From: Dehalococcoidia bacterium
Lineage (GTDB): Bacteria; Chloroflexota; Dehalococcoidia; Lucifugimonadales; CATOSD01
Direction of reading: 5' to 3'
Length of the DNA stretch: 64,000 nucleotides
NCBI GenBank assembly: GCA_965217705.1
Contig: CBDCJA010000002.1
Span: forward strand, 3,367,960-3,431,959
In this document: positions 30,166 through 64,000 of the stretch, piece by piece
Numbering within the stretch: position 1 is the first letter of the stretch
Layout of the letters: each line of letters begins with the position of its first letter
Notes under the pieces: generated by a model
The model's database searches: none
Told to the model about the DNA's origin: nothing
What the model saw: only the letters and a program-made list of their open reading frames with translations
Position numbers and translations under genes: made by a program

Positions 30166-30250
30166 GTCATCCCCCGGAGGGCACTACACGGGTGTGGTGG
30201 TCTTGAGGGGACTACACGGATGAAGTCCCCTCTGAGGGATTACACGGCGA
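30166..30250 (+). promoter_or_regulatory. Three phased boxes GGG-N-A(C/T)TACACGG (TACACGG at 30184, 30213 and 30241) in the divergent control region
   Basis: Spacing is 28-29 bp. About 65 bp are alignable with 9868..9935. Confidence 0.55.
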
Positions 30251-30496
30251 GGGGCCGCCGTGATGTCATGGGGCTGTACAGGGAAACGGGTCTGTGTGCA
30301 AGTTGTACACCGGGCGGATTTCATAGCTGGGACAGCCGGGAAAGGCCCCCTACAGGACGTAAACAGCGAACACTTTCTGTCAAGTGCCGGTTCCACGCCG
30401 TGTGCACATCGGCCTAGCTGAGATGTACATGTCGTACACCGCCGAAATCGGGAAGTGTGTACGGGAGTGGTACATGTTGCAGAGGAGGCGCAGACG

Positions 30497-31372
30497 ATGA
30501 AGCCGGATGAACAGACGGTGGCTGACGGAGGCGCCGAGGATGAGTTGCACCATGACCGGCTCATGGCGCTGCTGCACGAACTCGTGCGGAATCACGGCGG
30601 TCGCAGGGGTGCTGCGACGGTGCTGGGAATCGACCGGCGGACCGTGGCCGCGTGCATGGACGGGAGAGGTATGTCCTGGCGGATGAGGGAGGCGCTGGAG
30701 CGGGCGCTTCAAGACGGGGCGGGCCCGGCCGCCGCACGGCAGCTGGAGCGCAACGAGGCGCTGAAGCAGCGGGTGGACGCGCTGGAGAGGGAGGTTCGCA
30801 GCGGCATGGACGCCGTCAGGGGTGAGATCGAAGCCCTGCGGGAGGAACATTCCCGGGCGCTGTGCCGGTTGGAGCGGCGGTCGTTGGCGTGCGGGCAGGC
30901 CCCGCAAGAGTCCCCGGTGCCGGATGAAGCTTCCAGCGCGGCCGGACAGTGGCCGGAGAAAGCCCTGCCGGCAACCCGGCCGGCGGCGGCCGTGCTCCTG
31001 AAGCGGCTGTATCCCGAGCTGGTGACGAAGGAGCCCGCGCCCGACGACGAGGAGGTGTACGGCGAGGCGTGGCCGCTCGTCGAGGCGTGGCGCAGGCTGT
31101 GGCAGACCCACTCCGCCGGGGGCAGGGGCCTTCAGTGGCTGGAGGCAGAGGAGCACGTCCGGGAGCTGGAGGTTGCCATGCTGGAGGAGCACGGGCTGAC
31201 GCTGCCGCCGGAGACTGTGCCGCTGACGGGCCTGTGGCGAAGCACGCAGCTGAACTGGCGCAGGGAGACCCTCAGGGACGTCCGGAGGGCGGTGGCCTGG
31301 CGACGGTTGGTGAGGCGTATCCTGACGCTGGGTATGTGGGGGAGAAAGGCGAGTTTCAAGGGGCGCGCTTAG
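30497..31372 (+). CDS. HTH plus coiled-coil protein, module copy 1 (paralog of 63111..63929)
   Basis: HHDRLMALLHELVRNHGGRRGAATVLGIDRRTV... and the C-terminal WPLVEAWRRLW...LEEHGLTLPPETVPL align with the paralog. GAGGAGG SD before the ATG at 30497. Confidence 0.7.
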   Translation: MKPDEQTVADGGAEDELHHDRLMALLHELVRNHGGRRGAATVLGIDRRTVAACMDGRGMSWRMREALERALQDGAGPAAARQLERNEALKQRVDALEREVRSGMDAVRGEIEALREEHSRALCRLERRSLACGQAPQESPVPDEASSAAGQWPEKALPATRPAAAVLLKRLYPELVTKEPAPDDEEVYGEAWPLVEAWRRLWQTHSAGGRGLQWLEAEEHVRELEVAMLEEHGLTLPPETVPLTGLWRSTQLNWRRETLRDVRRAVAWRRLVRRILTLGMWGRKASFKGRA

Positions 31373-32068
31373 GGTTTTGTGGAACTGTACAGAACACTTT
31401 GGGCGGTGACGCCCCGAAACCCTTCCATCCGCACGTGCGTTCGGCGATAATCGAGCCAGTTTCAGGCTTTTCCAGCTGTTTCCCGCCCAGAAACCTGGAG
31501 GGTTCTCCGTCCCCCGAACCCGGGACCGGCTACACAGGATCGAGCACCGCGCTCTCCGAACAGCCGCCCAGGGGACCAAGCCGAAGGGATCGAGCATCGC
31601 GCTCTCCCGACGACCGCCCCGGAGGGACACATTCGCAGCGGCCCAGGCGCTTCCCGCTTCGGCCCCTCGGACACCATCGTAGCGAGTACGGTGTAGACTC
31701 TGTTCGGAGTGCGTCCCGCGCCCCGACCGATTTCCCACGTTTGCTGCACAACCGTCACGCGGTTGGGTCGCAGTTTCAATACATGCCGGCCTGCGATGAC
31801 GTCGTAGGTCTGCGTCGCTCTCTCACCGCGCCGTCCTGTGGTCGGTCTTCAGGTCGGTCGAATTTCCCTCACAGCAGCTTTCCCATGTCGATTCTCCTCG
31901 AGTTGACCCTGGACCCAGCTGCGTCTTCTTCACCCCGGTGTCTCCTGCGTTCGAATCGTCTCCGGATCGCGGGCGGCGGCGGCGTTCGGACACATGGATG
32001 CACGGAGACCAACGGCGAGCAAAGGAGATCACTAAGGCCGGACACAGACTGACGAAGGAGGACGGGAC

Positions 32069-32356
32069 ATGACGGAACGGTACACGGGGCCGAGCGCGCT
32101 CAGGATCGCCAACCTGCTGCCGCACCGAGTGAGCCACGACAAAGGCTGGTTCTGGACGGCGACAGCGATCTGTCACGGCAGCAAGTCGGACGGGCTGTCG
32201 TTCAGGCAGAGGCCGGACGGCGAGGAAATCGACGTGTGCTGCCGCACCGGGGGCTGCTCCCGTGGCATGGTAACTACGCACCCGGAGACCGCCGTCGGGC
32301 TGCCCATCTGGACGGCATATGAGCCGGTGGACGACGCGGCGAACAAGGCACCGTAG
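32069..32356 (+). CDS. Small protein with a primase-type (CHC2-like) zinc-finger pattern
   Basis: CHGSKSDGLSFRQRPDGEEIDVCCRTGGC. GAAGGAGG SD upstream. Confidence 0.45.
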   Translation: MTERYTGPSALRIANLLPHRVSHDKGWFWTATAICHGSKSDGLSFRQRPDGEEIDVCCRTGGCSRGMVTTHPETAVGLPIWTAYEPVDDAANKAP

Positions 32357-32559
32357 AAACGGCCGTGGTGGAAGCGCAAGCGGGTCTTGGTGGCCGGCGT
32401 GAGGGCCCTTGTCACTGCGGGGCCGCCGCTGACCCTCGCCGTGGATATCTTCTTCCCACACCACATCGGGCTGCTGCTCCTGCGGCGGTTCATGCCCCGG
32501 CGTTCTGTAAGGCGACGCTGGCGGCCCCGGGCCGTCAACAACCCATTCCCAACACTCAA

Positions 32560-32595
32560 GGGCCGTCTCCATCCGGGGACGGCCCTTCTTCTTTG
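32560..32595 (+). terminator. Intrinsic-terminator-like hairpin GGGCCGTC/GACGGCCC followed by TTCTTCTTT
   Basis: Read directly. It is followed by a second hairpin (GCCCGC-AGG-GCGGGC), an SD and an ATGACGACGGCAA start. Confidence 0.5.
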
Positions 32596-32646
32596 CCCGC
32601 AGGCGGGCGCAATCGGCAAGTCAACACAACACAGAAGGAGGTCGTG

Positions 32647-33114
32647 ATGACGACGGCAATGGTAGTAGCGGGCAATCGAACGGTGGACAACGTAGCGCGG
32701 CCCAGGCGCAGCCTGGAGGAGCTGGTCGACCGGCTCATGGACGCGCTGTTCGCTGCTAACACAGCGGGGGAGGAGCGGAGCGCGACGCGGACGATCCACG
32801 AGGCGCGGCGGCTCAGGCAGGCTGGGGACGTGGACGGGGCGCTTGCAGTGCTGGCCGAACTGGACATGTCGAGGGTGGAACAGCACGAGGCCAGGTGGGC
32901 CTTCACCGAGTGGCGGAACTTGGTCCAGAGGCAGTCCGGTGGATACGGAGTGCTGCTTTACAGCCAGGGCACGGGGAGGGCCGCAGCCCTGGTTCCCACC
33001 GGCGACGGGACGCTTGAGGTCGTTGCTGTCCTGGGGATGCGCTGGCGGCCCGGGGAGGCCTTCTCGACCCGCAGCCTGCGTGGGCTCAGGCCCTTGGAGA
33101 AGACTTGCCCTTGA
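32647..33114 (+). CDS. Hypothetical protein (MTTAMVVAGN...)
   Basis: GAAGGAGG SD and ordinary composition. The listed ORF 32365..33114 has a spurious N-terminal extension. Confidence 0.5.
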   Translation: MTTAMVVAGNRTVDNVARPRRSLEELVDRLMDALFAANTAGEERSATRTIHEARRLRQAGDVDGALAVLAELDMSRVEQHEARWAFTEWRNLVQRQSGGYGVLLYSQGTGRAAALVPTGDGTLEVVAVLGMRWRPGEAFSTRSLRGLRPLEKTCP

Positions 33115-33586: not shown

Positions 33587-33625
33587 GCGGGACTGTCTCC
33601 ATCGGGGGGCCGTCCCGCTTTTTCA
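33587..33625 (+). terminator. Hairpin GCGGGAC/GTCCCGC followed by TTTTTC, immediately before the SD and start of the 4xHTH gene
   Basis: Read directly. The layout matches 32560..32660. Confidence 0.45.
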
Positions 33626-33642: not shown

Positions 33643-34758
33643 ATGACGACGGCAACGATGGCAAACGGGACCCAGGCGACGGAGACGGCAGCACGGGAGA
33701 CCGAGCTGAGGGCCGCGGCGCGGCGGCGTGGGCTGACCATGAAGGAGCTCGCGGCCCTGATGGGAGTGTCCGCGGGCTACCTGTCGCAGGTTTCGACGGG
33801 GCGCAGGCCGTGGACGCAGACGATGCGGGACAAGGCCATGGCGGTGCTGGGAGAGGTCCCCGGCCAGGGAATGGTCTACCGCCAGACCAGCGTCGTGACC
33901 GGTGAGAGCAGCTTCATCCGGGAGCGCGCCCGTGAGCTGGGCATGACCATGCGGGACCTGGCCGACCGCGCCGGGGTGTCCTACAGCTACATGACCCAGG
34001 CGGCCCGGGGCCGCAAGAGCATGGGCGTGAGGGTCCAGGCCAGGATCGAGTCCGCTCTGCGGGCCCCGGCGAAGGTCGCTTCCGCTGCGTGCCCTGACCG
34101 CCCACAGAGCGTGGCGACCGCAGAGAGCAGCTTCATCAGGGAGCGTGCCCGCGCACTGGGCATGACCATGCGGGAGCTTGCCGATCGCGCGGGGGTATCC
34201 TACGGCTACCTGTCGCGGGTGTCCCGCGGCCACCGGAGCATGGGGGTGAAGGTCCAGGCAAGGGTCGAGGCGGCGCTTGAGGCGCCGGCGAAGATCGCGC
34301 CCGCGCAGCCCGCCAGTGTCGATCCCCAGGTGCTGTGGGACCGGATGAACGCCCACGGCATCAGCCAGAACGAGGCCGCCCGGCGCGCCGGCATCAGCTC
34401 ATCCCACCTCTCCCAGATCATGAACGGCAAGGCCAGCCCGTCTGCGGTCGTCCTCAGGGAGCTGCACGGTGTGCTGTTCAGGAGGACGAAGGCGGAGGAG
34501 CGGGTGATGCCCGTCGAGCTTAAGGTGCTGGGCTGGCGGAAGGGCGAGCGGAGCGGGACGGTGGTGCACGGCGCTCGCGGGAGGGACGGCACGGCCAGGG
34601 GCGGGGCCGTTCGGATCGGAGGCCGGGTGCCCTGGGGGGCGAAGGCGGAGTACGCCTACCGAGCGGGTTACGACGGCTCGGGCCGGCTGGCGATGACGCC
34701 CGTCCTGGCGCCCGGCTACTCCGCCATGCTGACTCAGCCGGAAGCGGGAGCCGCGTAG
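33643..34758 (+). CDS. Protein with four tandem XRE-type HTH domains plus a C-terminal domain, copy 1
   Basis: Four repeats of the pattern G(L/M)TM(K/R)(E/D)LA...GVS..Y(L/M)S(Q/R)...G. AGGAGG SD before the ATG at 33643. Paralog of 60785..61888. Confidence 0.8.
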   Translation: MTTATMANGTQATETAARETELRAAARRRGLTMKELAALMGVSAGYLSQVSTGRRPWTQTMRDKAMAVLGEVPGQGMVYRQTSVVTGESSFIRERARELGMTMRDLADRAGVSYSYMTQAARGRKSMGVRVQARIESALRAPAKVASAACPDRPQSVATAESSFIRERARALGMTMRELADRAGVSYGYLSRVSRGHRSMGVKVQARVEAALEAPAKIAPAQPASVDPQVLWDRMNAHGISQNEAARRAGISSSHLSQIMNGKASPSAVVLRELHGVLFRRTKAEERVMPVELKVLGWRKGERSGTVVHGARGRDGTARGGAVRIGGRVPWGAKAEYAYRAGYDGSGRLAMTPVLAPGYSAMLTQPEAGAA

Positions 34759-34960: not shown

Positions 34961-35186
34961 ATGAACCTCGGAGACTTCATCGACAGGTTCAAGGACTCCA
35001 TAGCGCAGCGGGTGGTCGAGTCCTACCCGCCGCTGTACAGGCGTTCGGAGAACGGTGGGAAGCTGCCCCGCCTGCTCCGCAGGCCCCTGGGGGCGCAGGC
35101 CGACGCCATCAGGGGCGCCGCTCTTTCGCTGGCGGCACACCGGGGCACGACGGTGGTGGGAGAGATGGGCACCGGCAAGACCTTCA
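34961..35186 (+). CDS. SNF2/DEAD-like helicase, exon 1, ending inside the Walker A region
   Basis: MNLGDFIDRF...TVVGEMGTGKTF then GTGCG (the intron 5' end). GGGAGGA SD upstream. Confidence 0.8.
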
Positions 35187-35661
35187 GTGCGCCGCGTAAC
35201 GCGGCATAGGATACCCGGCTCAGTCGGGAAGAACTCGGAGAAAGTTCTTGGGCCAACCGACCCACCTCGAAGCGAAAGCCTAGGGGGAAAGCAGCATGTC
35301 GGTAAAGCGGCTACAGTCCCAAAGCGTTGTAGGACTGGTTCCGCAAGGCCCGCGCGATACGGTGAAAGCTTGATTGCCTGAACCCCAGTTCCCAGTTGGT
35401 GTTCTTGCCACCCGCCGGTAGAACGCTTGTAACCCGGCGCCACTCATTGCCTCGGTACGATGAAGGTACCAATGCAACTCCGATGAGTGGACGATGACCG
35501 ATGCGGTCTATTCAAGGGAACGAACGGGGCACCTACAGTCGCGCTAGAACGTCCTATGTCAACGGAACGCGGGATGGCCTACGGGGGGAGACCCCTATGG
35601 TCACGGAGTCCTCATAGTAGCCCGAGCCGGGGAAAGCCCGGCACATGGCGAAGGAGGACAG

Positions 35662-37470
35662 GTGTCAACGACGAACAAACACAGAGAGGTATGCAGAATG
35701 CAAAACGCCGAAACTGTACTGAACGTCATACGCGAACGCGGAGAACGAGGATTGCCGCTGGAGAACATCTATCGGCTGCTGTACAACCGGAACCTTTACC
35801 TGCGGGCCTACGGGCGTATCTACTCAAATCAGGGGGCTACGACCAAAGGCGTCACCGCAGAGACCATGGACGGTATGTCACTGGCGAAAATCGACCGCAT
35901 CATCGAAGCCCTGCGCTACGAGCGGTTCCGATGGACGCCGGTGCGACGGGTCCACATTCCCAAGCCTAACGGCAAGACCCGCGCCTTGGGCATACCAACG
36001 GGGCCGGACAAGCTGCTGCAAGAGGTCATCCGGATGATTCTGGAAGCCTACTACGAGCCGCAGTTTTCCGACCGCTCCCACGGCTTTCGGCCTAACCGGG
36101 GGTGCCACACCGCCCTAGGCAACGTGACCACCCACTGGACCGGTGTCCGCTGGTTCGCCGAGGGAGACATCAAAGGGTGCTTCGACAACATCGACCACGA
36201 TGTCCTGTTGTCGGTGCTCGGCGAGAAGCTCCACGACAACCGATTCCTACGCCTGCTCAAGTACCTACTGAAGGCAGGTTACATCGAGGATTGGAAGTAT
36301 GGCCGCACGCTGAGCGGGACACCGCAAGGCGGCATCGTCAGCCCAATCCTCGCCAACGTTTACCTAGACCGGTTGGACAAGTTTGTCGAGAACGTGCTGA
36401 TACCAGCCCACACCCGTGGCTCAGACCGGAGAGACAACCGCGAGTACACACGTTTGCTGAACCAAGCGGCCCGCCAGAGGAAGCGGGGGAACCACGCCGA
36501 GGCACTGCAACTGCGCAAGCAAATGCAACAACTGCCGTCACGTGACCCCTACGACCCCGGCTACCGCCGGTTACGGTACGTGCGCTATGCGGACGACTTC
36601 GTGCTGGGTTTCATCGGGCCAAAGGTCGAAGCCCAACAGGTGAAAGAGTCCTTGGAGACGTTCCTGCGCGACACACTCAAGCTGGAGCTATCCAGGGAGA
36701 AAACTCTCATAACCCACGCCACCAGCCAGGCGGCGCGGTTCCTCGGCTACGAACTCGTGAACCAACAGGCCAACGACCAGTTTGACCGCAATGGTCGGCG
36801 CAGGGTCAACGGCCAAATCGGATTGCGGGTTCCCGCCAACGTCATCGAACAACACTGCCAAGCCTACATGCGCAAAGGCAAACCGGCACACCGCAGTTAC
36901 CTACTCCACGATGAAGATTTCTCCATCATGGCACAGTACCAGTCGGAGTTCCGGGGCGTCGTCAACTACTACCTTCTGGCCTACAACGTCTCCTATTTCG
37001 GGCGACTGCAATCGGTCATGGAGATGTCTTTGGCACGGACCCTTGCGGCAAAGCACAAGTCCACCGCACGGAAGATGCGACGCCAGTACAAGAGCGTCGT
37101 GGAAACCGAGCACGGGCCGCGTGCCTGTCTCAAGGTCGTCAAGCAGCAGGACAACGGCAAACGCCCTAAAGTGGCGTACTTCGGTGGCATACCCCTGAAA
37201 CGGCAACGGCAGGCAGTTCTCATAGACCAACAGCCTCAACGGTACAGGGCTGGCCGCAACGAGCTTATCAAACGGCTCGAAGCGGACGAGTGCGAGATGT
37301 GCGGGTCGGCAGTGGACGTAGAAGTTCACCACATCCGCGCACTTCGCGACCTGAACGTGAAAGGCCAACGGGAAAAGCTCAAGTGGGTTCAAATCATGGC
37401 GGCGCGAAAACGCAAGACCCTCGCGGTCTGCCGGACGTGTCACATGAACATCCACCACGGGCGAAAGTAA
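35662..37470 (+). CDS. Group II intron-encoded protein: reverse transcriptase, maturase and HNH endonuclease
   Basis: RT motifs (GIPTGPDKLLQ, FAEGDIKGCFDNIDH, GTPQGGIVSPILAN, RYADDFVLG), an X domain, and C-terminal CEMCGS...VHHI...CRTCHMNIHHG. The ATG at 35691 or 35698 are alternative starts. Confidence 0.9.
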   Translation: MSTTNKHREVCRMQNAETVLNVIRERGERGLPLENIYRLLYNRNLYLRAYGRIYSNQGATTKGVTAETMDGMSLAKIDRIIEALRYERFRWTPVRRVHIPKPNGKTRALGIPTGPDKLLQEVIRMILEAYYEPQFSDRSHGFRPNRGCHTALGNVTTHWTGVRWFAEGDIKGCFDNIDHDVLLSVLGEKLHDNRFLRLLKYLLKAGYIEDWKYGRTLSGTPQGGIVSPILANVYLDRLDKFVENVLIPAHTRGSDRRDNREYTRLLNQAARQRKRGNHAEALQLRKQMQQLPSRDPYDPGYRRLRYVRYADDFVLGFIGPKVEAQQVKESLETFLRDTLKLELSREKTLITHATSQAARFLGYELVNQQANDQFDRNGRRRVNGQIGLRVPANVIEQHCQAYMRKGKPAHRSYLLHDEDFSIMAQYQSEFRGVVNYYLLAYNVSYFGRLQSVMEMSLARTLAAKHKSTARKMRRQYKSVVETEHGPRACLKVVKQQDNGKRPKVAYFGGIPLKRQRQAVLIDQQPQRYRAGRNELIKRLEADECEMCGSAVDVEVHHIRALRDLNVKGQREKLKWVQIMAARKRKTLAVCRTCHMNIHHGRK

Positions 37471-37590
37471 TCCGCACAAGCAGAAGTAGGTAGTGTCAGC
37501 ACTCCAATCGAATACGATTCTTCGCCGCCACTTCCTTCATGGCATGGTAAAATCACAGCCACCACCGATCCAGTTGAGAGGAGGCTGACC

Positions 37591-56700: not shown

Positions 56701-59700
56701 CGTCTGGAACCGCACGGGCTGGGCATCGTGACGGTCGACTACGCGACGCGCGACGGCTCGGCGCGGGCGGGCGAGGACTACACGGAGACGGGCGGCAGGC
56801 TGAGGTTCAATTCGCTGGAGACGGAGCGGACGGTGACGGTGCCGATCACGGACGACACCGAGCCGGACGACGGCGAGACGTTCACGCTTACGCTGTCGAA
56901 CCCGGACGGCGCGCAGCTCAGGGACGGCGACGGCGAGGCCACGGGCACGATCCACAACAGCGAGCCGCAGGAGGCGCTGACGGCGTCCTTCGAGGACGTG
57001 CCGGCGGCACACGACGGCGCCGCGTTCCGGTTCCGGGTGGCGTTCAGCGAGGACATCGGCATCAGCTTCCAGGCGCTGCGCGAGGACGCGTTCGCGGTGA
57101 CGAACGGGCGGATCACGGACGGGGTGCCCGTGGACGACCGCCGCGACCTGTTCGATATGACGCTGGAGCCGGACGGCGACGGCGACGTGGCGGTCACGCT
57201 TGAGGCGGACCGCGACTGCGCGGAGTCCGGGGCGATCTGCACGAAGGGCGAGCCGCAGCGGCGGCTGACGACCACGGTGTCGGCGATGGTGGCCGGCCCG
57301 GACGGCGCGGCGAACGCCCCGGCCACGGGCGCGCCGGCCATCATCGGCACGGTCCAGGTGGGCGAGACGCTGACGGCGGACACCTCTGGCATCGCCGACG
57401 CCAACGGACTGACCAACGTTTCTTACAACTACCAATGGCTTGCCGACGACGCGGACATCGCCGGCGCCACCGGCTACAGATACACCCTGGCCGATAGCGA
57501 CGAGGGCAGGACCATCAGGGTAAGGGTGACCTTCACCGACGACGCGGGCAACGAGGAGTCGCTGACCAGCGCACCCACGGAGCCGGTGTTGGAGGAGCCG
57601 GTGTTTGGGGACGGCCCGCCGGGAGCGCCGCGCAACCTCACCGTCACCGCCGGAGACCAGGAGGTCACCCTGTCCTGGGAGCCGCCAGCCGACAACGGCA
57701 ACGCGCCCGCGACGAGATACCGCATCGAGTGGAGGATAGACGGCAAGGACTACAAAAAGGGGCATTGGGGCCCATCGGGAGAGACTACCTATACGAAGAC
57801 CGACCTGGCCAATGGAGTGAAGTACATCTTCCGGGTAAAGGCCGAGAACGGCAACGGCAACAGCTACGGACCATACGGACCGGCCTCCGAGGAGGTGAGC
57901 GCCACTCCCACGTCCGGCTTGGCGGTGGACCTGGGCACGCCGGTGCTGTCGAACACGAAGACCCTGCATCACGGCATGGTGCAGCTGGACTGGGAGGACG
58001 TAGAGGACGCCGGTTGGTATGTAGTCCAGTACTACCATGTCAAAGGTGGGGAGTGGCTGGACCTGCCCGCCGCCGGAGTGGACATCGCGTTCCACGGTTC
58101 GAGCGCGGTGGTGAGCAACGTGCATGGGCTCTCGTGGCTGAGGGTTCGAGCGATGAGCTGTGCGGGAGAATCGGAGTGGTCGCAGATCGAGGAGTTGTAC
58201 GGGACCAATGCATCGGACTGGGAGGGAGTGCCCGTACCCGAGGTGGCGGAGGGCGACGAGATCGAGCCATGCCCCGTGGTCCTGGGCACGCCGGTGCTTT
58301 CGAACACGGAGACCCTGCATCACGGCATGGTGAGGCTGGACTGGGAGGACATTGAGGACGCCGGTTGGTACGTGGTCCAGTACTACCACGCCAAAGGTGG
58401 GGAGTGGTTGGACCTGCCCGCCGAGGGAGTGGACATCGCGTTCCACGGTTCGAGCGCGGTGGTGAGCAACCTGCATGGGCTCTCGTGGCTGAGGGTTCGA
58501 GCGATGAGCTGTGCAGGAGCATCGGAGTGGTCGCAGATCGAGGAGTTGTACGGGACCAATGCATCGGACTGGGAGGGCGTGCCCGTACCGGAGGTGGCGG
58601 AGGGCGACGAGATCGAACCGTGCTCCGAAGACGGTGACACGACGGACAACAGTCCGGCGACTGGAGCGCCCACAATCAGCGGGACGGCGCAGGTGGGCGA
58701 GACGCTGTCGGCGGACAAGTCAGGAATCGCCGACGCCGACGGCCTAACGAACGCCACCCACAGATACCAGTGGCTTGCGGACGACGCTGCAATCGCGGGC
58801 GCTACCGGCTCGACCTACACCCTGGCGGACACCGACGAGGGCAAGGCCATCACGGTGCAGGTGAGCTTCACCGACGACGCGGGCAATGATGAGACTCTGA
58901 CCAGTGAGGCCACGGACGCAGTGGCGGCAGCGCCTGCTGCCAACAACCCAGCCACCGGCGCTCCCACGATCAGTGGCACGGCCCAGGTGGGCGAGACGCT
59001 GACGGCGGACAGGTCGGGGATCGCCGACGCCGACGGGCTTAGCAACGTCCAGTACGAGTACCAGTGGCTTGCCGACGACACAGCGATTCAGGGCGCCACG
59101 GACGCCACCCACACCCTGGCGAACACCGACGAGGGCAAGGCCATCAAGGTGCAGGTGAGCTTCACCGACGACGCGGGCAATAATGAGGCGCTGACCAGTG
59201 CGGCTACGGGCGCGGTGTCGGCGGCGGAACCTACGGAGCCGCCCGCCAGACCCACCGGCCTCTCGGCCACGGCGTCGCACGACTCTGTGACCCTCACGTG
59301 GGACGACCCCGGCGACGACTCCATCACCGGCTACGTGATCCTGCGGCGCGTCCGCGTGAACAATACCGGGGGCGACTTCAGTGAACTGGTGGCGGACACG
59401 GGCACAGCGGCGACCACCTACACCGACGACACGGTGGCTGCCGGCACCACTTACACCTACCGGATCAAGGCCATCAACGGGGCCGGAACGAGTGAACGCT
59501 CGCGCTGGTTCCACATCGACACTCCGGCAGCGCCCGTACCCGATAAGCCCACGGGCTTGTCCGCCACGGCGTCCCACGACTCGGTGACCCTCACCTGGGA
59601 AGACCCCGGCGACGATAGCATCACCGGCTACGTGATCCTGCGGCGCCTCCGCTACGACGACCCCTCGGGCCACTTCGATGAGCTGGTGGCGGACACGGGC

Positions 59701-59835
59701 ACGGCGGCGACCACGTACACCGACGATACGGTAAAGGCCAACACTCACTATACCTACCGGATCAAGGCCATCAGCGGGGCCGGGGTGAGCGAGCGTTCCC
59801 GCTGGTTCCACATCCAGACCCAGGAGGCCCCGTAG
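44767..59835 (+). CDS. Giant (5,022 aa) secreted mosaic surface/adhesin-like protein
   Basis: AAGGAGGA SD. Signal peptide MTNINRRRFPILLASALALLAILGALLLPITAQA. By eye: cadherin-like beta-sandwich repeats, pre-peptidase C-terminal (PPC)-type repeats, Calx-beta repeats, FN3 domains, two leucine-rich-repeat blocks, a His-rich segment, and YQWL...GAT..Y.L...D.G-type beta repeats. The listed ORF starts 33 codons earlier, at 44668. Confidence 0.9.
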   Translation: MTNINRRRFPILLASALALLAILGALLLPITAQAQTVTTLVSNIGQTTNAFALLDVLDGDQALSITTGGTTSDSHTIESLEIKVDEYERVGSTGTVSLYSDNSGVPGSSIFTFTNPTGGIVSESVNTFTAPDNTTLTGGTTYHIVVSGEAPAGATGPNFDLEVTTSNDQDDAGEDDWEIGDSGHSLSGTTWSSSTYVMQIRVNGSAVGGETPTLSTDATLSGLSLGTGVTLSPAFASGTDTYTASVANSVDEVTVTPTTNHASATVEILDTDDNELNDSDDVEDDFQVALEVGDTVIKVKVTAEDGTSTQTYTVTVTRAAEMTPDDSGNVSEGDTDLPGDTTTTGKVEVGGSVTGKIRNLNDKDWFAVELEAGKRYQIDMEGADTGRGTLTHPRVSGIYDAAANAIANTANNGGGVGNNARVIYTPDAAGTYYVEAYFQTGELNRTYTLSVILLGANGASEADTDFPATTATTGRVEVGSKVEASVTGNIESATDEDWFRVDLEAGKTYQIDMKGEYGGGGTLEDPYLNNIRDSSSNEIEGTFNDDIDPDNNLNSQITFTPTAGGTYYLLVGAASSTTGTYTLSVREIPPSCTLNTGDVWCGVVTVGEYKSGGITFAYGFVDATTDTGALSDTTFDVSPNSYTIDRASVGVSGLAGQLIFSLTSALTEPDRAKLVLHVDGSSGSFAFDGVTPTASFGYRWAMSGLDWSSETSVTLRLRDTPPLSTDATLSGLSLGTGVTLSPAFASGTDTYTASVANSVDEVTVTPTTNHASATVEILDTDDNELDDADDVEDDFQVALSVGDTVIKVKVTAEDGTSTQTYTVTVTRAADMTPDDPPDDSGNVSEGDTDLPGDTTTTGKVEVGGSVTGTIADTIDDLSSGDSFKVDLEAGKRYQIDVEGAPTGRGTLPDPWLASIVDPDGNQVQGAGDNDSGVGLNARLILTPTEDGAHDVNVRAYFVPSAQPGTYTLSVILLGANGASEADTDFPTTTATTGRVDVGASVTGNIGAVDEEDWFRVDLEAGKIYQIDLEGLPTGRGTLGDPWLDNIRDSSGTEILATSNDDIDGDNFNSQITFTPTAAGAYYLVAAGNGVAGTYTLSVRDITTPSCTLNTGDVWCGVVTVGMFTLDGTSYLGYLDGTGGGGMLSDNDFDFTDTELDSKSHTITGVLLASGTLSLIFEDSQDEDDKPVLDTWDLQVGTDTFALDDDDVTQLPTGGYQWTGTGLSWSVGDTVTLRLRGETGPPSVANVAVTSMPLLTSSGGSEQDTYGAGDEIEFTVTFSQVVVVTGDPQFGFSLSGARQADYRSGSGSTALKFVYTVQSSDSDDDGIWIGNHNSNTKSLQLDANDEITSPGGIDANLEHDQKQVQAGHKVDGSLSSKPTLSIADAAAAEGDDLSFTVTLSAAAAADVTATWTASIETGDTAVAADLGTTRTGTVTVSMGNTTGTITVATVEDSTVEVNETFTVTLSGVSSNAQLSSTAATAQGTINNDDLATLSTDATLSGLSLGTGVTLSPAFASGTDTYTASVANSVDEVTVTQTTNHASATVEILDTDNLALTDADSTEDGFQVALSVGSTQLGVLVTAEDGTTTKFYTVTVTRDDFPADTTTTGKVDVGGSVTGNITSASDRDWFRVDLKKDKRYQIDLEGAGTNRGTLTDPTLNAMRDASSNSISGTGNSDSGVGINARTIFTALADGAHYVVAAGNGATGTYTLSVIVLGANGASEADFDFPATTATSGRVEVGASATGNIKNLDDAYDWFRVDLEAGKTYQYDLEGVDTSRGMLDDPYLGLFDGSGTSLFDDDDDGTGLNSRITHTPATGGTYYLGAARAGTSAGTYTLSVRDITLPTLSVADASDAENDGEVEFTVTLSEAAATAVTATWTATIETGDTAVAADLGTTTTGTVTVAIGDTMGTFEVPVVNDATDEGDETFTVTLSNVSSNAKLETDPTAKGTIEDDDATLPTLSIADAAATEGSNVSFAVTLSAAAAADVTATWTASIETDDTAVAADLGATKTGTVTVAIGDTDATITVATAPDTTVEVNETFTVTLSGVSSNAQLSSTAATAQGTINNDDLATVSVADAEGDEDDGVEFTLTLSAAAPADVTVDWTASIESGDSASTADLATTKTGTVTITKGDTTKKFTVPVNDDSTDEPDQTFTVTLSNPTPTSLAQLAADPTAEGTIDDDDDPPTISVVDMTVIEGDLNPDNVPTFNNNPGFPWTVMLSEASEKRVRYRSRQVVDGTATDADLKVTVAFSGRPSIQAGLTSVVRGVNNIVNDALDEDDETFTIEVYDLENATAGATRSTITIVDDDPTPTVTVADAAATEGDKVEFVVTLSAVSGRDVDVDYATSVATGDDAVSDTDFTAASGTLTIAAADSTATGTIEVQTTEDDASESAETFTLTISSPDNATLTTDTTATGTINNRATTAAEPTTFAAAVGDEEVVLSWDAPVSASGVTRHEYQYKEGTGAYKGWVQIANSGVDGANEAGFTVTGLTNEVLHTFQLRAVNAQGESTAAEADAVTPTPGICDRTAKIQEVILAELADVSECAAVTVADLASITTFGLSALGTFNQGITSLQAGDFAGLTALTQLNLSQNQLTTLPEGIFSGLTAVEGISMEQNQLTALPEGMFAGLPNLTLILLTGNSLTAIPPRAFAGLTGLTNISLGLNDLTALPAGLFTDLTTLENISLADNDLTALPAGVFSGLTVLDTLYLGGNELSSLDAGVFSGLTSLERLELDRNDLSSLPAGVFSGLAALTRLNLDDNDLSSLPDGLLSGLTGLTRLQLFDNPNSGDTLALTVTVEKFGTDQARAKVLAGAPFAVNFTATVVNGSLPTGVTKLAVAAGSVEGTAVTVTRTSGTMAAVTVDIDLTTQPTLPEFHRGYEFVKATSGLPAEILPDTRGPQNFTAKPGDGQAVLSWTAPASGSGVTKHQYRQKEGTGSYPANWTDIPNSAEGEANEDGYTVPGLTNETVYTFELKRFVGTTESATAESNAVTPTPGICDRTQQVQDGILAGLADVSDCAAVTVADLESFTASLEFAGEDIASLKSGDFAGLSNLDVLELSRNTFTTLPANVFSGLTSLTSLKVSNGELSSIDARAFSGLTALEVLKLDTNDLDSLPGTVFSGLTTLITLELNGNDLASLPGTVFNGLSALHTLHLQSNDLETLPAGLFSGLSALSTLTLADNDLTAIPAQVFSGLSALEILNLSDNDLNSLDAGVFSGLSNLRSLSLRNNQLSALPDGLFSGLTALTGLNLSDNTTNPMPLTVTVEKFGTDQARAKVLAGAPFAVEFTATVVDGSLPTGVTKLAVAKGSAEGTAVTVTRTTGTMEAVTVDIDLSTQPSLPDKHEGYTFARASDLPAEILPAEASLEPPTGLSATPGDRLAVLTWTPPASDSGFTRHQYRYGTDGDFVDWTDIPDSGPGEANGSRYTVTGLDNAVEYSFELRARDAGAGRSHAATVAVTPEGPPRILSVEVTSVPVLDNETTYGAGEEVDISVTFDQPVVVEGAPQLVLDVDGSRLAEYHEGSGSNTLVFAYVVTESDRDTDGVSVGDNALRLDGGDVIRNGAGDNAELPHDGPGQQSGHRVDGERRAGVHDHGEFTHSHSHFRQQYPEHTHEGHEHADDANGHKRRPGTHVHHAQEEPNASISGGPDVRTHDGVEHIHRCFDLKPSCNQGDDYAERGDELGLPIEVTHSHEHSEPGHRFDWRAFFEEGGSGATVSVADAVAMRGEGRTLDFEVSLEPAVAFAVRVDYATVDGTATAGEDYLGTSGVLEIPPGQTRATVSVRMPADGPGDGPELFELRLSSATAATVADGEATGTILTPGPSTPPVIERIAVASTPRLSSDGNTNRDTYGEGETIRIEVRFDQPVVVVGDPTFALEVGDPCESVCEADYESGSGADTLVFAYLVLEVDVDRNGIAIRGNPIEVVLGDSIRNAAGQEARLSSKGKGTQRNHKVDGSRSAAAHLSVANAEAREADGEMTFTVRLEPHGLGIVTVDYATRDGSARAGEDYTETGGRLRFNSLETERTVTVPITDDTEPDDGETFTLTLSNPDGAQLRDGDGEATGTIHNSEPQEALTASFEDVPAAHDGAAFRFRVAFSEDIGISFQALREDAFAVTNGRITDGVPVDDRRDLFDMTLEPDGDGDVAVTLEADRDCAESGAICTKGEPQRRLTTTVSAMVAGPDGAANAPATGAPAIIGTVQVGETLTADTSGIADANGLTNVSYNYQWLADDADIAGATGYRYTLADSDEGRTIRVRVTFTDDAGNEESLTSAPTEPVLEEPVFGDGPPGAPRNLTVTAGDQEVTLSWEPPADNGNAPATRYRIEWRIDGKDYKKGHWGPSGETTYTKTDLANGVKYIFRVKAENGNGNSYGPYGPASEEVSATPTSGLAVDLGTPVLSNTKTLHHGMVQLDWEDVEDAGWYVVQYYHVKGGEWLDLPAAGVDIAFHGSSAVVSNVHGLSWLRVRAMSCAGESEWSQIEELYGTNASDWEGVPVPEVAEGDEIEPCPVVLGTPVLSNTETLHHGMVRLDWEDIEDAGWYVVQYYHAKGGEWLDLPAEGVDIAFHGSSAVVSNLHGLSWLRVRAMSCAGASEWSQIEELYGTNASDWEGVPVPEVAEGDEIEPCSEDGDTTDNSPATGAPTISGTAQVGETLSADKSGIADADGLTNATHRYQWLADDAAIAGATGSTYTLADTDEGKAITVQVSFTDDAGNDETLTSEATDAVAAAPAANNPATGAPTISGTAQVGETLTADRSGIADADGLSNVQYEYQWLADDTAIQGATDATHTLANTDEGKAIKVQVSFTDDAGNNEALTSAATGAVSAAEPTEPPARPTGLSATASHDSVTLTWDDPGDDSITGYVILRRVRVNNTGGDFSELVADTGTAATTYTDDTVAAGTTYTYRIKAINGAGTSERSRWFHIDTPAAPVPDKPTGLSATASHDSVTLTWEDPGDDSITGYVILRRLRYDDPSGHFDELVADTGTAATTYTDDTVKANTHYTYRIKAISGAGVSERSRWFHIQTQEAP
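45406..45719 (+). repeat. Near-identical ~315-nt intragenic repeat (cadherin-like unit), copy 1 of 3; the others are at 46933-47248 and 49240-49553
   Basis: CTCTCGACGGACGCGACGCTGAGCGGGCTGTCGCTGGGCACGGGGGTGACGCTGAGCCCGGCCTTCGCCTCGGGCACGGACACCTACAC... recurs almost base for base. Confidence 0.9.
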
Positions 59836-60127
59836 CAGGTATCGAGGACTGCGAAGGCGAGGGAGCCATCGGCACGAGCGACGGCAGAAAGTTGTCCGAC
59901 GAGTTGGCGCCGACCGTCAGCGGTCCGGGCCGGTAGAGGGCAACGGAAAAAGGCCGCACACATGTGTGAAGCTGGGGAGGCCGCCACAGCCCTTGGGCAA
60001 GCAGGGCAGCGGCCTCCCCGAAGGCTCCGGGTTGGACCGACTGCGGGCGCTTGCGCTCCGCACACCGTCCGGCCCGGACGTCGGCGGTTGGAGGGAGATT
60101 GCAGCCGTCCTGCGGAAGGACCGGACA

Positions 60128-60463
60128 ATGCCGAGAGAGCCAGTTGACCACGGCAGAATAGTCTACGTCGTGCCTCCCGACTTCCCGGAGCGACTGGAGC
60201 TGCTCCAGGAGGAGTCGGGGCTGCCGTGGGCGGAGATCGCTCGCCGTCTCGGGACCTATCCCTACACCGTATGGCGTTGGTATAGAGGCCGAGCGCGGCC
60301 CCATTTCCGGCACCAGATGGCGCTGCTGGACCTGGCCGACGAACTGGGACTCGCCCACCTGCTGACCGCGTGGACCCTCCCGGACGAAGCGCGGCGCGAG
60401 AAGCCCGCCAAAGACGTCCCGCCCGGGTGCGAGAGTCCTGGGAGGAAAGCCGCGCGTCGGTGA
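60128..60463 (+). CDS. Small HTH protein, type A (paralog of 11390..11674)
   Basis: MPREPVDHGRIVYVVPPDFPERLELLQEESGLPWAEIARRLGTYPYTVWRWYRG. GGAAGGA lies upstream of the ATG at 60128. Confidence 0.6.
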   Translation: MPREPVDHGRIVYVVPPDFPERLELLQEESGLPWAEIARRLGTYPYTVWRWYRGRARPHFRHQMALLDLADELGLAHLLTAWTLPDEARREKPAKDVPPGCESPGRKAARR

Positions 60464-60784: not shown

Positions 60785-61888
60785 CTAGGCGGCGGCCATC
60801 TCCGGCTGCTTCAGCATGGCGGAGTAGCCCCTCTCGACGACGTGGGTCACCGACAACCGGCCATGACCGTCGTACCCCGCGCGGTAGGCGAACTCCGCCT
60901 TCGCGCCCCAGGGCACGTGGCCGCCGACCCGGACGGCGGGGCCTCCAGACCTGCCGCGGCGCCCCGGCCCGCCCGCGCCGTGCACCACCATCCCGCTCCG
61001 CTCGCCCTTCCGCCAGCCCAGCACCTTCACCTCGGCGGGCATGACCCGCTCCGCCTTCGTCGGCTGGAACAGGACACCGTGCAGCCCCTTCAGCACGCCC
61101 GCCGACGGGGAGGACTTGCCGTTCATGATCTGGGAGAGGTACGAGGAGCTGATGCCCGCTCGCCGGGCGGTCTCGTTCTGGCTGAAGCCGTGAGCGTCCA
61201 TCCGGTCCCACATCGCCTCCCGGTCGATGCTGGCGGGCTGCGCGGGAGCGATCTTCACCGGGGCCTCCAGCGCCGACGCGACCCTGGCCTGGACCTTCAC
61301 GCCCATGTTGCTATGACCCCGTGCCACCATTGACATGTAGCCGTAGGAGACGCCCACGCGGTCGGCCAGGTCCCGCAGGTTCATGCCCAGCTCCCTGGCC
61401 CGCTCCCGGATGTAGCTGCTCTCCCCGGCCACGACGACGCCTTGGCGGTGGGCGCACGTGGCGGGCGCGACCTTCGCCGGACCGTGCAACGCCGACTCGA
61501 CCCTGGTCTGGACCTTCACGCCCATGTTCTGGCGGCCACGGGCAACCTGGGTCATGTAGCTGTAGGAGACGCCCACCTCATCGGCCAGGTCCTTCATGGT
61601 CATGCCCAACGTGCGGGCGCGCTCCCGGATGAAGCTGCTCTCGCCGGTCACGACGCCGCCCTGGCGGTAGACGATGCCCTGGCCGGGGACTTCTCCCAGG
61701 ACCGCCGCGACCTTCTCCCGCATCTTGGGCGTCCACGGACTGCCCCCGTTGGCGATCCGCGACAGGTAACTCGCGCCCACGCCCATCAGGGCCGCGAGTT
61801 CCTTCATGGTGAGCCCGCGCCGCCTGGCCGCAGCCCTGAGCTCGCTCTCCGCCGTCCTCGTTCCGGTTGCCATCGTTGCCGTCGTCAT
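60785..61888 (-). CDS. Protein with four tandem XRE-type HTH domains, copy 2
   Basis: MTTATMATGTRTAESELRAAARRRGLTMKELAALMGVGASYLSRIANG... is colinear with 33643..34758. Confidence 0.8.
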   Translation of the reverse strand: MTTATMATGTRTAESELRAAARRRGLTMKELAALMGVGASYLSRIANGGSPWTPKMREKVAAVLGEVPGQGIVYRQGGVVTGESSFIRERARTLGMTMKDLADEVGVSYSYMTQVARGRQNMGVKVQTRVESALHGPAKVAPATCAHRQGVVVAGESSYIRERARELGMNLRDLADRVGVSYGYMSMVARGHSNMGVKVQARVASALEAPVKIAPAQPASIDREAMWDRMDAHGFSQNETARRAGISSSYLSQIMNGKSSPSAGVLKGLHGVLFQPTKAERVMPAEVKVLGWRKGERSGMVVHGAGGPGRRGRSGGPAVRVGGHVPWGAKAEFAYRAGYDGHGRLSVTHVVERGYSAMLKQPEMAAA

Positions 61889-62180
61889 CGGTCCGTCCTC
61901 CTTCTGTTGTGTTGTGTTGCCTTTGGCCTGCGCCCGCTTGCGGGCAAAGAAGAAGGGCCGCCCCCGGCGAACGAGGACGACCCTTGTGAATGGGGATGTG
62001 TTGTGAGAACCGGAGGCCCCGCCGTCAGCGGCGATGGACCTCGTTGACGTGCATAGACGCCTCCTTTCAGTTGTTGACCCGTGCAGGCATCCGTGGCGCG
62101 GGTACTTCGTGATGGGGTTGACGCTGGACGCACTCCGCCCACGGTCGGATGCCGGACGCGAGAGACGGAGTGGGAGTGAG

Positions 62181-62480
62181 AGAAGACGCAGCCCGGCCCA
62201 GGGTGATTCGCCGGGAAATCGACTGCCGGGGAGCTGCTACGGGGGAAGCGACCGTCCTACGACTTCATCGCAGGACGGCGCAGGTGAAGAAGGCGCGGCT
62301 CGCCCAGGGTGCGTAGCGTCAGAGTTGGGGGAAGCTGCGAGAGGTGAAGCGGCCGGCCCACGACGTGGCCGCAGACCGACGCATGACAGAAGACGCAGCT
62401 CGGCCCAGGGTGAACAACGTCAGTGGGAGAACTGCGAGACGTGAAGCGGCCAGCCTGCTTTCAACGGCAGACCGGCGCAT
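62181..62480. repeat. Three tandem ~102-105-bp non-coding repeats
   Basis: AGAAGACGCAGCYCGGCCCAGGGTGA-type heads at 62181, 62286 (degenerate) and 62388, each followed by CTGCGAGA(G/C)GTGAAGCGGCC-like tails. Confidence 0.6.
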
Positions 62481-62612
62481 GTCGAAGCTGCGGCCCGGCT
62501 GCGTGTCAGCCGTGCCGCGGGCATGAGGAGTCGGCGGAGCGACAGACGCACTCCGACCGACTTGTGGAGGACGAAGCACAAGGCGCGCTCCGTCCCAGTT
62601 GTCCAGCGGCGA

Positions 62613-62930
62613 GAGCGATCGACTCCCAACGCCAGCCCTGAGTCCAACGAATGGAGCGATCAACTCCGATTCGCCAGACCAATGCCCAGCGAGTGAAGCG
62701 ATCAACCCCAACCGGCAGACTGGTTCCCAACGGCAGGAGCGATCAACTCCAATCGCTGAACGGGTGTCCAGCGGGCGAAGGGCTTATCACTCCAACCGCC
62801 GGACTGGACCGAGGACGGAGAGCTACGTCAAATCCGTCGTTTCGATCCGTGCTGCCTGCGAAGGACCAACGTCAACTCCGCTTCAGCAGCATTCCCTCGT
62901 GGGCAACCGGGGGAGAGCGAATCATCCTCC
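62613..62930. repeat. Iteron-like array: about 8 direct copies of AGCGATCAACTCC-like boxes with 41-47 bp phasing
   Basis: Boxes start near 62614, 62655, 62697, 62738, 62781, 62824, 62868 and 62915. The spacers are not conserved. Confidence 0.6.
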
Positions 62931-63110
62931 AGTCGGACCCGTGCAACAGGGATCGCGCACCCAGGTTTCTATGGTCGGAAACCTTGGTCAAAAGCCAAAC
63001 AGTGCAGTCATTGTCGCCGTTCCCGGCGCCGCAAAAGAGGGCCTGCAAGACCCCCCCGGCAGATTGCCGCCAAATCGTTCACTAAAGTTCACAACGAACC
63101 CGCCGCCCGG

Positions 63111-63929
63111 CTACCGCCACAGCAGACCGAGGGTCAGACGCCGCAGAAGCTCCCGCTTGCGCCGCGCTCTCCGCGTGTCGTAGAGCGCGGTCCTGCGCCA
63201 GCTGGTCTGCTCGTCCCGCTCGAAGCCCCGCAGCGGGTACGTCTCCGGGGGCAGCGTCATGCCGTGCTCTTCGAGCAGAGCCAGCTCCACCGTCAACAGC
63301 CGCTCCTGGGTCGCCAGCCACTCAAGGCCCCCGCCCCGGTTGGGGTGCGCGGCCTTCAACTCCCGCCACTCGACGATGAGGGGCCAGGCGTTCCCGAACA
63401 CGTCCGCGTCGTCGTCGGCAGGCTCGATGGTCACCAGGTCGGGAAACTCCCGCCTGACCGGGGACCCCCGCTTCGCCTGCGCTCCAGCTCCCGGCGCGGC
63501 CCCGTCCCGAGCGGCCCGGCCCGACTCCAGCTGCGCCAGCCGCCGCCCCATCTGGGCCTGCTCGTCCCCCAGCGCCTTCACGTCGCCCCGGACCGCCGAG
63601 AGGCCCTTGCTCGTGTCCCTGCCCAGCGCGTCCACCCGGCCCTCGACCTCCGTCACCCGCCCATCGAGGCTGTCGTTGCGCTCCCTCTGCTCGGCCGCCG
63701 GCGAGCCCTCCCCCTCCAGAAGCGCCTTCTCCAACACGCTGCGCATCCGCCTGGACAGCCTGCCCCGCTCCATGCTGGCGGTGAGGGTCTTGTAGTCCAC
63801 CCCCAACAGCTGCGTCGCCTTCATCACTCCCTTGTCCCGCACCAGCTCGTTCAGCAGCGCCATCAGCCGCATGTGCTGCATGTCCTGGACGCTCCTGCTC
63901 TTCTCGAACACCGGCTTTCCCGTATTCAT
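63111..63929 (-). CDS. HTH plus coiled-coil protein, module copy 2
   Basis: HMRLMALLNELVRDKGVMKATQLLGVDYKTL... and WPLIVEWRELK...LEEHGMTLPPETYPL are colinear with 30497..31372. Confidence 0.7.
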   Translation of the reverse strand: MNTGKPVFEKSRSVQDMQHMRLMALLNELVRDKGVMKATQLLGVDYKTLTASMERGRLSRRMRSVLEKALLEGEGSPAAEQRERNDSLDGRVTEVEGRVDALGRDTSKGLSAVRGDVKALGDEQAQMGRRLAQLESGRAARDGAAPGAGAQAKRGSPVRREFPDLVTIEPADDDADVFGNAWPLIVEWRELKAAHPNRGGGLEWLATQERLLTVELALLEEHGMTLPPETYPLRGFERDEQTSWRRTALYDTRRARRKRELLRRLTLGLLWR

Positions 63930-64000
63930 CGGTCACTCCTCCTCTCTCAAGGCCTCCAAGTTTCCAACGGGGCCAGTCCAAGTCCAGTCCTGCCTCCAGA

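Follow-up and report, generated by a model that had tools for sequence, protein, structure and literature searches.

The 64,000-nt stretch of contig CBDCJA010000002.1 analyzed here (positions 3,367,960 to 3,431,959; hereafter the window), from a Dehalococcoidia bacterium, contains two copies of a regulatory module in inverted orientation. Each copy consists of a gene for a helix-turn-helix (HTH)/coiled-coil protein, a long non-coding leader, and a gene for a protein with four HTH domains (4xHTH). Each copy probably belongs to an integrative conjugative element (ICE) of its own; the two ICEs would be members of the same multi-copy family, lying tail to tail, with the module as its regulatory core. 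Element 1 would then extend from about 7.5 to about 40 kb, and element 2 from beyond 64 kb to about 41.8 kb. The leader, 0.7–1.2 kb in length, is a credible new structured RNA.

Relatives of the module were collected from GTDB with one genome per species. The scan returned 115 relatives of the 4xHTH gene; the best 80 of these (L001–L080), all in Dehalococcoidia metagenome-assembled genomes and up to five of them in a single genome, were taken further. Altogether 84 related loci were examined, each centered on one module. The module is present once per copy in these loci and keeps a single layout, in which the HTH/coiled-coil gene, a long non-coding stretch, and a multi-HTH gene follow one another on one strand. 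In most loci it is divergent from VirB4, pilin, and VirB6 genes; in some, a serine recombinase gene occupies that place instead. Two structural types were distinguished. In type A, 2.1–2.6 kb separates the two genes and includes genes of 95 and 155 aa, and the module is usually followed by a gene for an SNF2-like helicase of about 800 aa. In type B, the interval is 1.05–1.26 kb with no gene within it, and a small HTH gene in convergent orientation and a gene for a large adhesin usually come next. Module 1 of the window is of type A and module 2 of type B. The family is mosaic, with module types and tails found in different combinations. The components of the two modules are as follows.

30497-31372, + strand: HTH/coiled-coil gene of module 1, 42% identical to 63111-63929
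31373-32068, + strand: leader of module 1, non-coding and conserved across 34 type-A loci; contains one RNA unit at 31809-31945
32069-32356, + strand: 95-aa gene with a good Shine-Dalgarno (SD) sequence, found in type-A modules only (tblastn 49–77% in type-A loci)
32533-32646, + strand: leader/attenuator block of module 1, homologous to 62004-61876
32647-33114, + strand: 155-aa gene, function unassigned, found in type-A modules only and conserved there; its product starts MTTA like that of the 4xHTH gene
33643-34758, + strand: 4xHTH gene of module 1; before it, at 33603-33617, lies a second hairpin of terminator-like form
60785-61888, - strand: 4xHTH gene of module 2 (Pfam HTH_3), homologue of 33643-34758
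61889-63110, - strand: leader of module 2, 1.2 kb, conserved, structured, transcribed, and non-coding
63111-63929, - strand: HTH/coiled-coil gene of module 2; relatives with a type IV secretion system (T4SS) operon remain homologous up to the window edge at 64000

An original prediction, made from the window alone, had described the modules as diverged paralogs bracketing about 26 kb of cargo. The genes lie where it had placed them. The 4xHTH proteins are homologous (BLASTP 74% over 355 aa), each with three to four Pfam HTH_3 stretches, and their genes match in inverted orientation (blastn 80% over 1137 nt, E=0). The HTH/coiled-coil proteins align with 42% amino acid identity (E=5e-56); for the module 1 gene, the ATG at 30497, which has a good SD, is preferable to the GTG at 30455. 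The prediction had named a lack of inverted similarity outside the gene pairs as the result that would count against it. Self-comparison of the window gave such matches in non-coding DNA, at 32538-32659 versus 62004-61876 (78%, E=2e-22), 31823-31936 versus 62287-62173 (73%, E=4e-6), and 31902-31929 versus 62415-62388 (89%), so this test fails and the observation stands. Its example of aligned non-coding DNA (31795-31940 versus 62181-62280) also holds, as a covariance model built from relatives of module 2 matches 31809-31945. Two small genes, 32069-32356 and 32647-33114, are present in module 1 only. The leader block at 32538-32659 precedes the 155-aa gene in module 1, and its homologue precedes the 4xHTH gene in module 2.

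Comparison with other genomes placed the modules in separate lineages. For the HTH/coiled-coil protein, module 2 shares 96% identity with P0121/L081 and 95% with L041, and module 1 shares 74–75% with L025 and L033; the window partners share 42%. Likewise, the 4xHTH protein of module 1 is 92% identical to P0006 versus 74% to its partner. Each module is thus closer to copies in other genomes than to the other module of the window, which argues against duplication within one element; in that sense, the two are not paralogs. Their surroundings also differ. The segment 34758-39960 is collinear with 32 type-A loci. The segment 64000-57591 matches L081 and L027 at 86–89% identity, and in both of these loci a complete T4SS operon lies upstream of the module; the order of small HTH gene, adhesin gene, spacer (44438-44811), and kinase gene matches L005, L006, L014, L021, L032, and L039. 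Homology to these six type-B relatives ends at the kinase stop codon. The spacing of about 26 kb was accurate (26,026 nt between the two 4xHTH genes), but the segment is not bracketed cargo; it is made up of the elements' own distal regions, each collinear with relatives. A search by contig coordinates, with a limit of 60 kb, found no convergent module partner in the 80 GTDB loci; side-by-side copies in other orientations occur. Separate lineages, two different tails, a pairing that does not recur, and repeats that are poor substrates for recombination together argue for two elements, tail to tail. Of the two explanations originally offered, the first (two related elements, and possibly another transfer operon past 64 kb) is therefore supported, except that the elements are not head to head: the transfer operons are on the outside. 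The second operon very probably exists, as predicted from the relatives.

Multiple copies are also found together elsewhere. OZ240206.1 (L018, L015, and L007) has three family copies within 72 kb, two of them abutting recombinase to recombinase, and in several loci the recombinase gene is truncated through insertion of another element.

Four points weigh against two separate elements. Only 70 nt of sequence upstream of the second HTH/coiled-coil gene fall within the window, and the second operon is thus deduced from relatives rather than seen. Both modules lie between the same recombinase gene and an unseen end, as the 5' part of comM, the gene in which element 1 is inserted, is not in the window. 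The border between the elements falls within about 39.96–41.8 kb and has no exact position. Finally, the kinase could belong to either element, because in L069 the helicase, small HTH, and kinase genes have the same strands as in element 1. Two genes occupy this border zone.

40059-40325, - strand: small HTH gene, paralog of 59966-60463, in the post-helicase position seen in type-A relatives
40571-41749, - strand: endonuclease/exonuclease/phosphatase-like gene (weak Pfam match), in the zone where the elements meet

The second of these genes was absent from the 80 loci searched (L001–L080), and a DNA contig joins 40380 to 41815, skipping it.

We considered whether element 2, acting through its own serine recombinase, could have inserted itself within element 1's helicase gene, in which case element 1 would resume beyond element 2 with the 3' part of the helicase gene and then the 5' part of comM. 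Helicase homology is lost at 39960, about 215 codons short of the relatives, and the sequence that replaces it encodes EFSVFQSTQKSTVLMGGRIG, which resembles the C-terminal part of a serine recombinase open reading frame (ORF) in L019. The 3' end of the recombinase gene abuts the target in this family, as it does at comM; the orientation of element 2 fits, and so does the missing 5' part of comM. However, L025 and L033 share both the truncation and the junction and then continue into unrelated DNA (insertion sequence elements, and an adhesin gene on the opposite strand), so the break in the helicase gene seems older than the present pairing. Furthermore, no orphan 3' fragment of the helicase gene was found beside a recombinase gene in the 84 loci. 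We therefore consider such a nested insertion unlikely. The shared junction lies at 39960-40110 in the window, 13037-13096 in L025, and 13022-13101 in L033, and L019 3168-3242 resembles it; judged from its sequence, it may be an old scar of site-specific recombination.

A single composite element, whose regulatory module was duplicated in inverted orientation and could invert the 26-kb segment, is highly improbable: the inverted geometry, with 1.1 kb at 80% identity, and the presence of only one element end in the window would suit it, but both copies have much closer counterparts in other genomes than in each other, they represent different structural types (only one has the 95-aa and 155-aa genes), each of the 84 loci is centered on a single module and none of the 80 from GTDB has a convergent partner within 60 kb, and inversion, the second explanation originally offered, is itself unlikely because the longest exact match between the repeats is 37 bp at an overall identity of 80%, with no recombinase or invertase gene beside them.

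The non-coding DNA between the module genes had been predicted to have a function, such as an origin or an RNA, because it is conserved between diverged copies. Comparison across copies bears this out and identifies RNA as the best-supported form. In an alignment of 37 type-B copies, the leader has a mean pairwise identity of 85%, against 75% for the HTH/coiled-coil coding sequence and 88% for the multi-HTH coding sequence. A search for ORFs of at least 60 codons open in 80% of these copies found none, the open runs extending no further than about 160 nt. Two ORFs called in the window were rejected as junk frames over the conserved leader: "p85" (61885-62142) and the first 94 codons of the ORF at 32365-33114, whose real start lies after the leader.

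Folding was assessed with RNAalifold, by comparing the consensus energy with that of column-shuffled alignments; the multi-HTH alignment from the same loci served as the coding control. The leader gave −609 kcal/mol versus −447 ± 12 for the shuffled alignments (z about −13), and the control gave −663 versus −650 ± 9 (z −1.5). In the predicted structure, 95.4% of the cells are paired. Cells in which both sides of a pair had changed numbered 94 versus 48 ± 7 after shuffling, a value reached in none of 500 shuffles, and a further covariation count was 19 versus 5.9 ± 2.1. For helices predicted on both strands, the ratio of G-U to A-C cells was 223:82 in the leader and 57:43 in the coding control, with 1.2:1 expected from base composition; this excess of G-U points to pairing of the sense strand.

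The leader is built in part from repeated units. A covariance model of a 135-nt unit from type-B relatives was run against loci of both types, and every locus searched had between one and three copies on the sense strand. Its matches in the window were 62166-62299 (138 bits), 62372-62491 (60 bits), and 31809-31945 (47 bits, E=9e-8). Across 50 distinct sequences, pairing in the central hairpin of the unit stands at 98.6% and includes CG-to-UA exchanges, and about one-third of the copies have an extra hairpin inserted at one point. The leader of module 2 contains 41-nt repeats (62600-62756) and 101-nt repeats (62245-62456), the latter comprising the units at 62166-62299 and 62372-62491.

The last 130 nt of the leader are nearly invariant in an alignment of 61 copies of both types. 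This terminal block has a fixed order: a mini-ORF, a covarying GC-rich hairpin, CUUCUUCUUU, a second hairpin, an CAACACAACA tract, and the SD. The CUUCUUCUUU stretch can be read as a terminator tail and also as the complement of the next AAGGAGG. In module 2, the mini-ORF (MHVNEVHRR, 62054-62025) has a strong SD and is followed by a terminator-like/anti-SD hairpin at 61985-61953 and by the hairpin GCCCGCAAGCGGGC. The order in module 1 is a hairpin at 32558-32587, the invariant CUUCUUCUUU, the hairpin GCCCGCAGGCGGGC, CAACACAACA, and the SD. A terminator scan reported terminator-like sites at 61985-61953 (- strand), 32558-32587 (+ strand), and 33603-33617 (+ strand), which in form are putative intrinsic terminators or attenuators.

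Evidence for transcription came from metatranscriptomes. RNA contigs of 600–900 nt cover 61907-62987 at depths of 7–53, and most of the multi-HTH coding sequence has depths of 0–5; module 1 behaves likewise at 31516-31675. The sequencing runs that contain the window, among them metatranscriptomes labelled sponge metagenome, consist of short assembled contigs dominated by multi-copy relatives (depths in the thousands). An Rfam scan of the window returned only Intron_gpII (38403-38501) above threshold and no family match for the leader; within 61700-63200, CC2171 scored highest, with 24.9 bits where the gathering threshold is 75.

By these measures, the leader is a structured non-coding RNA, as judged from unstranded contigs and from statistics that are blind to phylogeny. 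Some caution is needed, since three points tell against this assignment. The covariation is modest because the copies are 85% alike, the covariation counts ignore phylogeny, and the RNA evidence consists of unstranded assembled contigs from related copies in other samples, for which depth is a poor measure of expression. A stronger proposal, that the leader is a new class of large structured RNA with variable hairpin units, specific to a very abundant conjugative family in sponge-associated Dehalococcoidia and acting beyond a passive leader (e.g., as a sensor or timer for synthesis of the repressor and hence for transfer), is one we advance only tentatively.

It is rather unlikely that the conserved region acts instead as DNA, be it an origin of transfer, an iteron-type origin or partition site, an operator array for the HTH proteins, or a single-strand leading-region promoter. 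The tandem 41-nt and 101-nt repeats of variable copy number are in keeping with such a role, many hairpins would equally arise in single-stranded DNA during transfer, which tolerates G-T pairs, and genes for two DNA-binding proteins lie on either side. Nevertheless, a DNA site explains neither the long RNA contigs, at 7–53x versus 0–5x over most of the adjacent 4xHTH coding sequence, nor the terminator-like hairpin at the end of the region, with a U-tract that is the complement of the next SD. A typical origin of transfer spans a few hundred bp, whereas the region is about 1.1 kb. A match between the numbers of HTH domains and 41-nt repeats was sought and rejected, as the domains (4–7) do not track the repeats: proteins with 4, 6, and 7 HTH domains accompany 3.8 or 3.2, 2.8, and 0 detectable repeats, respectively. 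Functionless similarity, left by recent recombination or gene conversion among co-resident copies, is scarcely credible; the many copies per genome and the mosaic family would allow it, but conservation close to that of the best-conserved coding gene, in 37 copies from different genomes and with no ORF, is not expected from it, and nor are a fold excess and strand-biased G-U substitutions that the coding control lacks.

Upstream of module 1 lies a control region shared with the transfer genes.

30131-30496: divergent control region, with three boxes, the motif CCCCCTACAGGACGTAAACAGCGAACACTTT, and four TGTACA-type boxes before the HTH/coiled-coil gene

The boxes originally reported at 30166-30250 were confirmed as three direct repeats of GAGGGnACTACACGG with 28-nt spacing (30178-30250). 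A direct copy (77%) of the box region 30131-30230 occurs at 9838-9936, between the serine recombinase gene of element 1 and the next gene, which suggests joint control of transfer and excision. The short boxes differ by sub-lineage: they are of the TGTACA type in the window, and ATGACAT, TGCCA, TTGCA, or TGGACA elsewhere. The motif CAGnGAACACTTTG (30364-30377) is found upstream of the HTH/coiled-coil gene in all sub-lineages. It is repeated at 31388-31401, 16 nt past the stop codon of that gene, where by its sequence it may be a further promoter or operator for the leader.

The HTH/coiled-coil protein has no Pfam, NCBIfam, or PHROG family, and a profile search against the PDB gave only coiled-coil noise. 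An AlphaFold2 (AF2) model of the second copy (pLDDT 68) has an N-terminal HTH bundle, a 59-residue helix, a disordered linker, and a three-helix C-terminal domain. Foldseek found nothing at E<1 for this model, and only a weak XRE/cII/Cro likeness for the N-terminal domain. The multi-HTH protein contains four to seven tandem XRE-type HTH domains; its lengths of 371, 445, 518, and 591 aa correspond to two to five copies of a 73-aa repeat. Expansion of the repeat appears recent, because L083 has three identical 73-aa copies. (The multi-HTH genes of L082, L083, and L084 lie from 6001 onward.) The best NCBIfam match of the multi-HTH protein is TrbA (NF010465), with 82.5 bits over three repeats; as the equivalog cut-off is 96, identity with TrbA was rejected.

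A scheme for control can be proposed from position, domain content, and predicted structure, which are also the grounds for the roles given to both proteins and for attenuation as the control mode. The module would be a control operon divergent from the transfer genes. The fast-evolving HTH/coiled-coil protein is a putative DNA-binding protein, and its probable targets are the short boxes in front of its own gene. Transcription would run on into the long structured leader, and most transcripts would end at the terminal hairpin with CUUCUUCUUU or have their SD masked by it, so that the multi-HTH protein would be made only upon read-through or unmasking. The multi-HTH protein, the conserved part of the system, is probably a repressor of transfer.

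The remaining genes of element 1 are listed from the recombinase gene onward.

6977-7474: comM-like fragment, overlapped by the 3' end of the recombinase gene, with only the last part of Mg_chelatase plus Mg_chelatase_C
7456-9138, - strand: large serine recombinase at the head of element 1 (Pfam Resolvase, Recombinase, and Zn_ribbon_recom)
18032-30113, - strand: transfer operon of element 1 (Pfam), in the same order upstream of the module in most of the 84 loci
18820-20493, - strand: Replic_Relax relaxase, 31.2 bits (cut-off 25.3)
20487-23303, - strand: VirD4-like coupling protein, TrwB_AAD_bind 29.9 (cut-off 20.5)
23735-26152, - strand: VirB4-like ATPase, P-loop_TraG/TraC 47.1 (cut-off 25.8)
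between the VirB4-like and pilin genes, - strand: 582-aa protein
28092-28442, - strand: T4SS pilin (Pfam)
28548-29510, - strand: VirB6/TrbL (Pfam)
listed after VirB6/TrbL in the operon, - strand: 192-aa protein
34961-40132, + strand: SNF2-like helicase, with exon 1 at 34961-35186 and exon 2 at 38502-40132 (PHROG DNA helicase match)
35187-38501, + strand: group II intron in the helicase gene (Rfam Intron_gpII 38403-38501, 67.5 bits)

Judged by its gene content, element 1 is an ICE inserted in comM, because a transfer operon is accompanied by a serine recombinase gene that overlaps a split comM fragment. Only its left end is visible. Two defence-type genes lie inside it, among 10064-11368 and 16003-17553: PDC-S01 (a DUF4143 ATPase, E=4e-157) and a PD-T4-4_A-like ATPase (E=3e-41). 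Just outside element 1, 2914-6090 encodes a type IIG restriction-modification enzyme. A direct repeat of 269 nt (14612-14880 and 15621-15889, 99%) flanks about 740 nt in a low-GC stretch at 12–18 kb.

The insert in the helicase gene is a group II intron, as it has a reverse transcriptase/maturase, a domain V, and a precise absence elsewhere. The intron protein (35662-37470) has Pfam RVT_1, Intron_maturas2, and HNH domains. The intron splits the Walker-A codons (GTGKT|F), and DNA contigs of other copies contain the exact intron-less joint from 35184 to 38502. The spliced helicase ORF is continuous and encodes 618 aa; relatives have about 800 aa. Between the intron protein gene and domain V lies a 920-nt insert (37477-38395) with a 235-aa ORF that has a weak DUF429 match. 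Neither the related loci nor the other copies of the intron present in the same runs have this insert.

Element 2 carries three further genes beyond its module.

59966-60463, + strand: small HTH gene (Pfam HTH_23), convergent with the 4xHTH gene of element 2 and in the same position in about 40 loci
44668-59835, + strand: repetitive surface protein of 5055 aa (Pfam cadherin-like, PPC, Calx-beta, LRR, and fn3), an accessory gene of element 2
41755-44181, - strand: hybrid histidine kinase/response regulator (Pfam) in the tail of element 2; six relatives of module 2 are collinear here

The C-terminal part of the adhesin is conserved beside the small HTH gene in about 20 loci. The presence of homologues at the same place in these relatives suggests that proteins of a host-interaction type travel on the elements. 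Their lengths are very different (2112 aa in L081, 14009-20347), and the adhesin gene of the window has many internal DNA repeats with up to 94% identity. Small HTH genes occur four times across both elements (11435-11689, 11715-11957, and 40059-40325 on the - strand; 59966-60463 on the + strand); these scattered paralogs account for an extra inverted repeat, 11543-11636 with 60163-60256.

The family seems to be undescribed. Homologs, all unnamed, number more than 2000 for the 4xHTH protein and more than 1700 for the HTH/coiled-coil protein. The 4xHTH protein had no match in a plasmid database search, and an origin in phage was dropped because viral contigs gave only generic HTH matches (33–38%). 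In the literature searched, we found no description of conjugative elements in Dehalococcoidia or of the leader RNA.

ICEs accrete at hotspots, as in SXT/R391 tandem arrays and in accretion of the ICESt3 type. Like other ICEs with a T4SS, the elements described here have a recombinase gene at one end beside a split target gene; genes for relaxase, coupling protein, VirB4, VirB6, and pilin; a regulatory module; variable accessory genes; and related elements side by side. They differ in their host class, Dehalococcoidia, for which no family was found in the literature searched, in using a large serine recombinase, in lying tail to tail in opposite orientation rather than in direct tandem, and in that neither main regulatory protein matches a named ICE regulator. 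Accretion of ICEs at hotspots has been reviewed (PMC5812530). The multi-HTH protein resembles the TrbA/KorA-type XRE repressors of IncP in its HTH_3 repeats, in its best match (TrbA), and in the position of its gene beside a transfer operon. Unlike them, it has four to seven HTH domains per chain, through the 73-aa repeat, plus a C-terminal domain, and the likeness is one of sequence alone.

In Tn916, tet(M) has a leader peptide and terminators upstream and is controlled by leader-based attenuation. The arrangement here is similar, in that the regulated gene is directly preceded by a GC-rich hairpin and a U-rich tract, ahead of which lies a short ORF whose SD is strong, but the leader of about 1.1 kb is composed of variable-number hairpin units, is more conserved than the gene upstream of it, and has no known ligand or trigger. 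OLE, GOLLD, and ROOL are large ornate bacterial non-coding RNAs, of which GOLLD and ROOL are carried by mobile elements or phages (PMC12286853, PMC9723947). The leader shares with them a length of several hundred to a thousand nt, a conserved structure, and the lack of an ORF; in contrast to them, it is repetitive rather than a single ornate fold, has no Rfam family, shows modest covariation, and may be only a 5' leader and not a free-standing RNA. As in shufflons and phase-variable promoters, inverted repeats flank a block with a surface-protein gene. Here, however, the repeats are whole diverged genes (80% over 1.1 kb), no invertase gene is adjacent, and relatives do not share the arrangement.

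The inverted pair itself is ordinary, since mobile elements of the same family often accumulate side by side, and this accounts for the geometry without an inversion switch. Its value is that it exposes a family with thousands of unannotated conjugative element copies in Dehalococcoidia. Giant surface proteins with leucine-rich repeat, fibronectin, and cadherin domains, of the kind thought to mediate interaction between sponge symbionts and their hosts, are among the accessory genes; if such proteins travel on conjugative elements, this would provide a route for their spread. The regulatory core combines two unannotated protein families with a long, structured, transcribed leader that has no Rfam match, and this leader is a concrete candidate for RNA-based control of conjugation.

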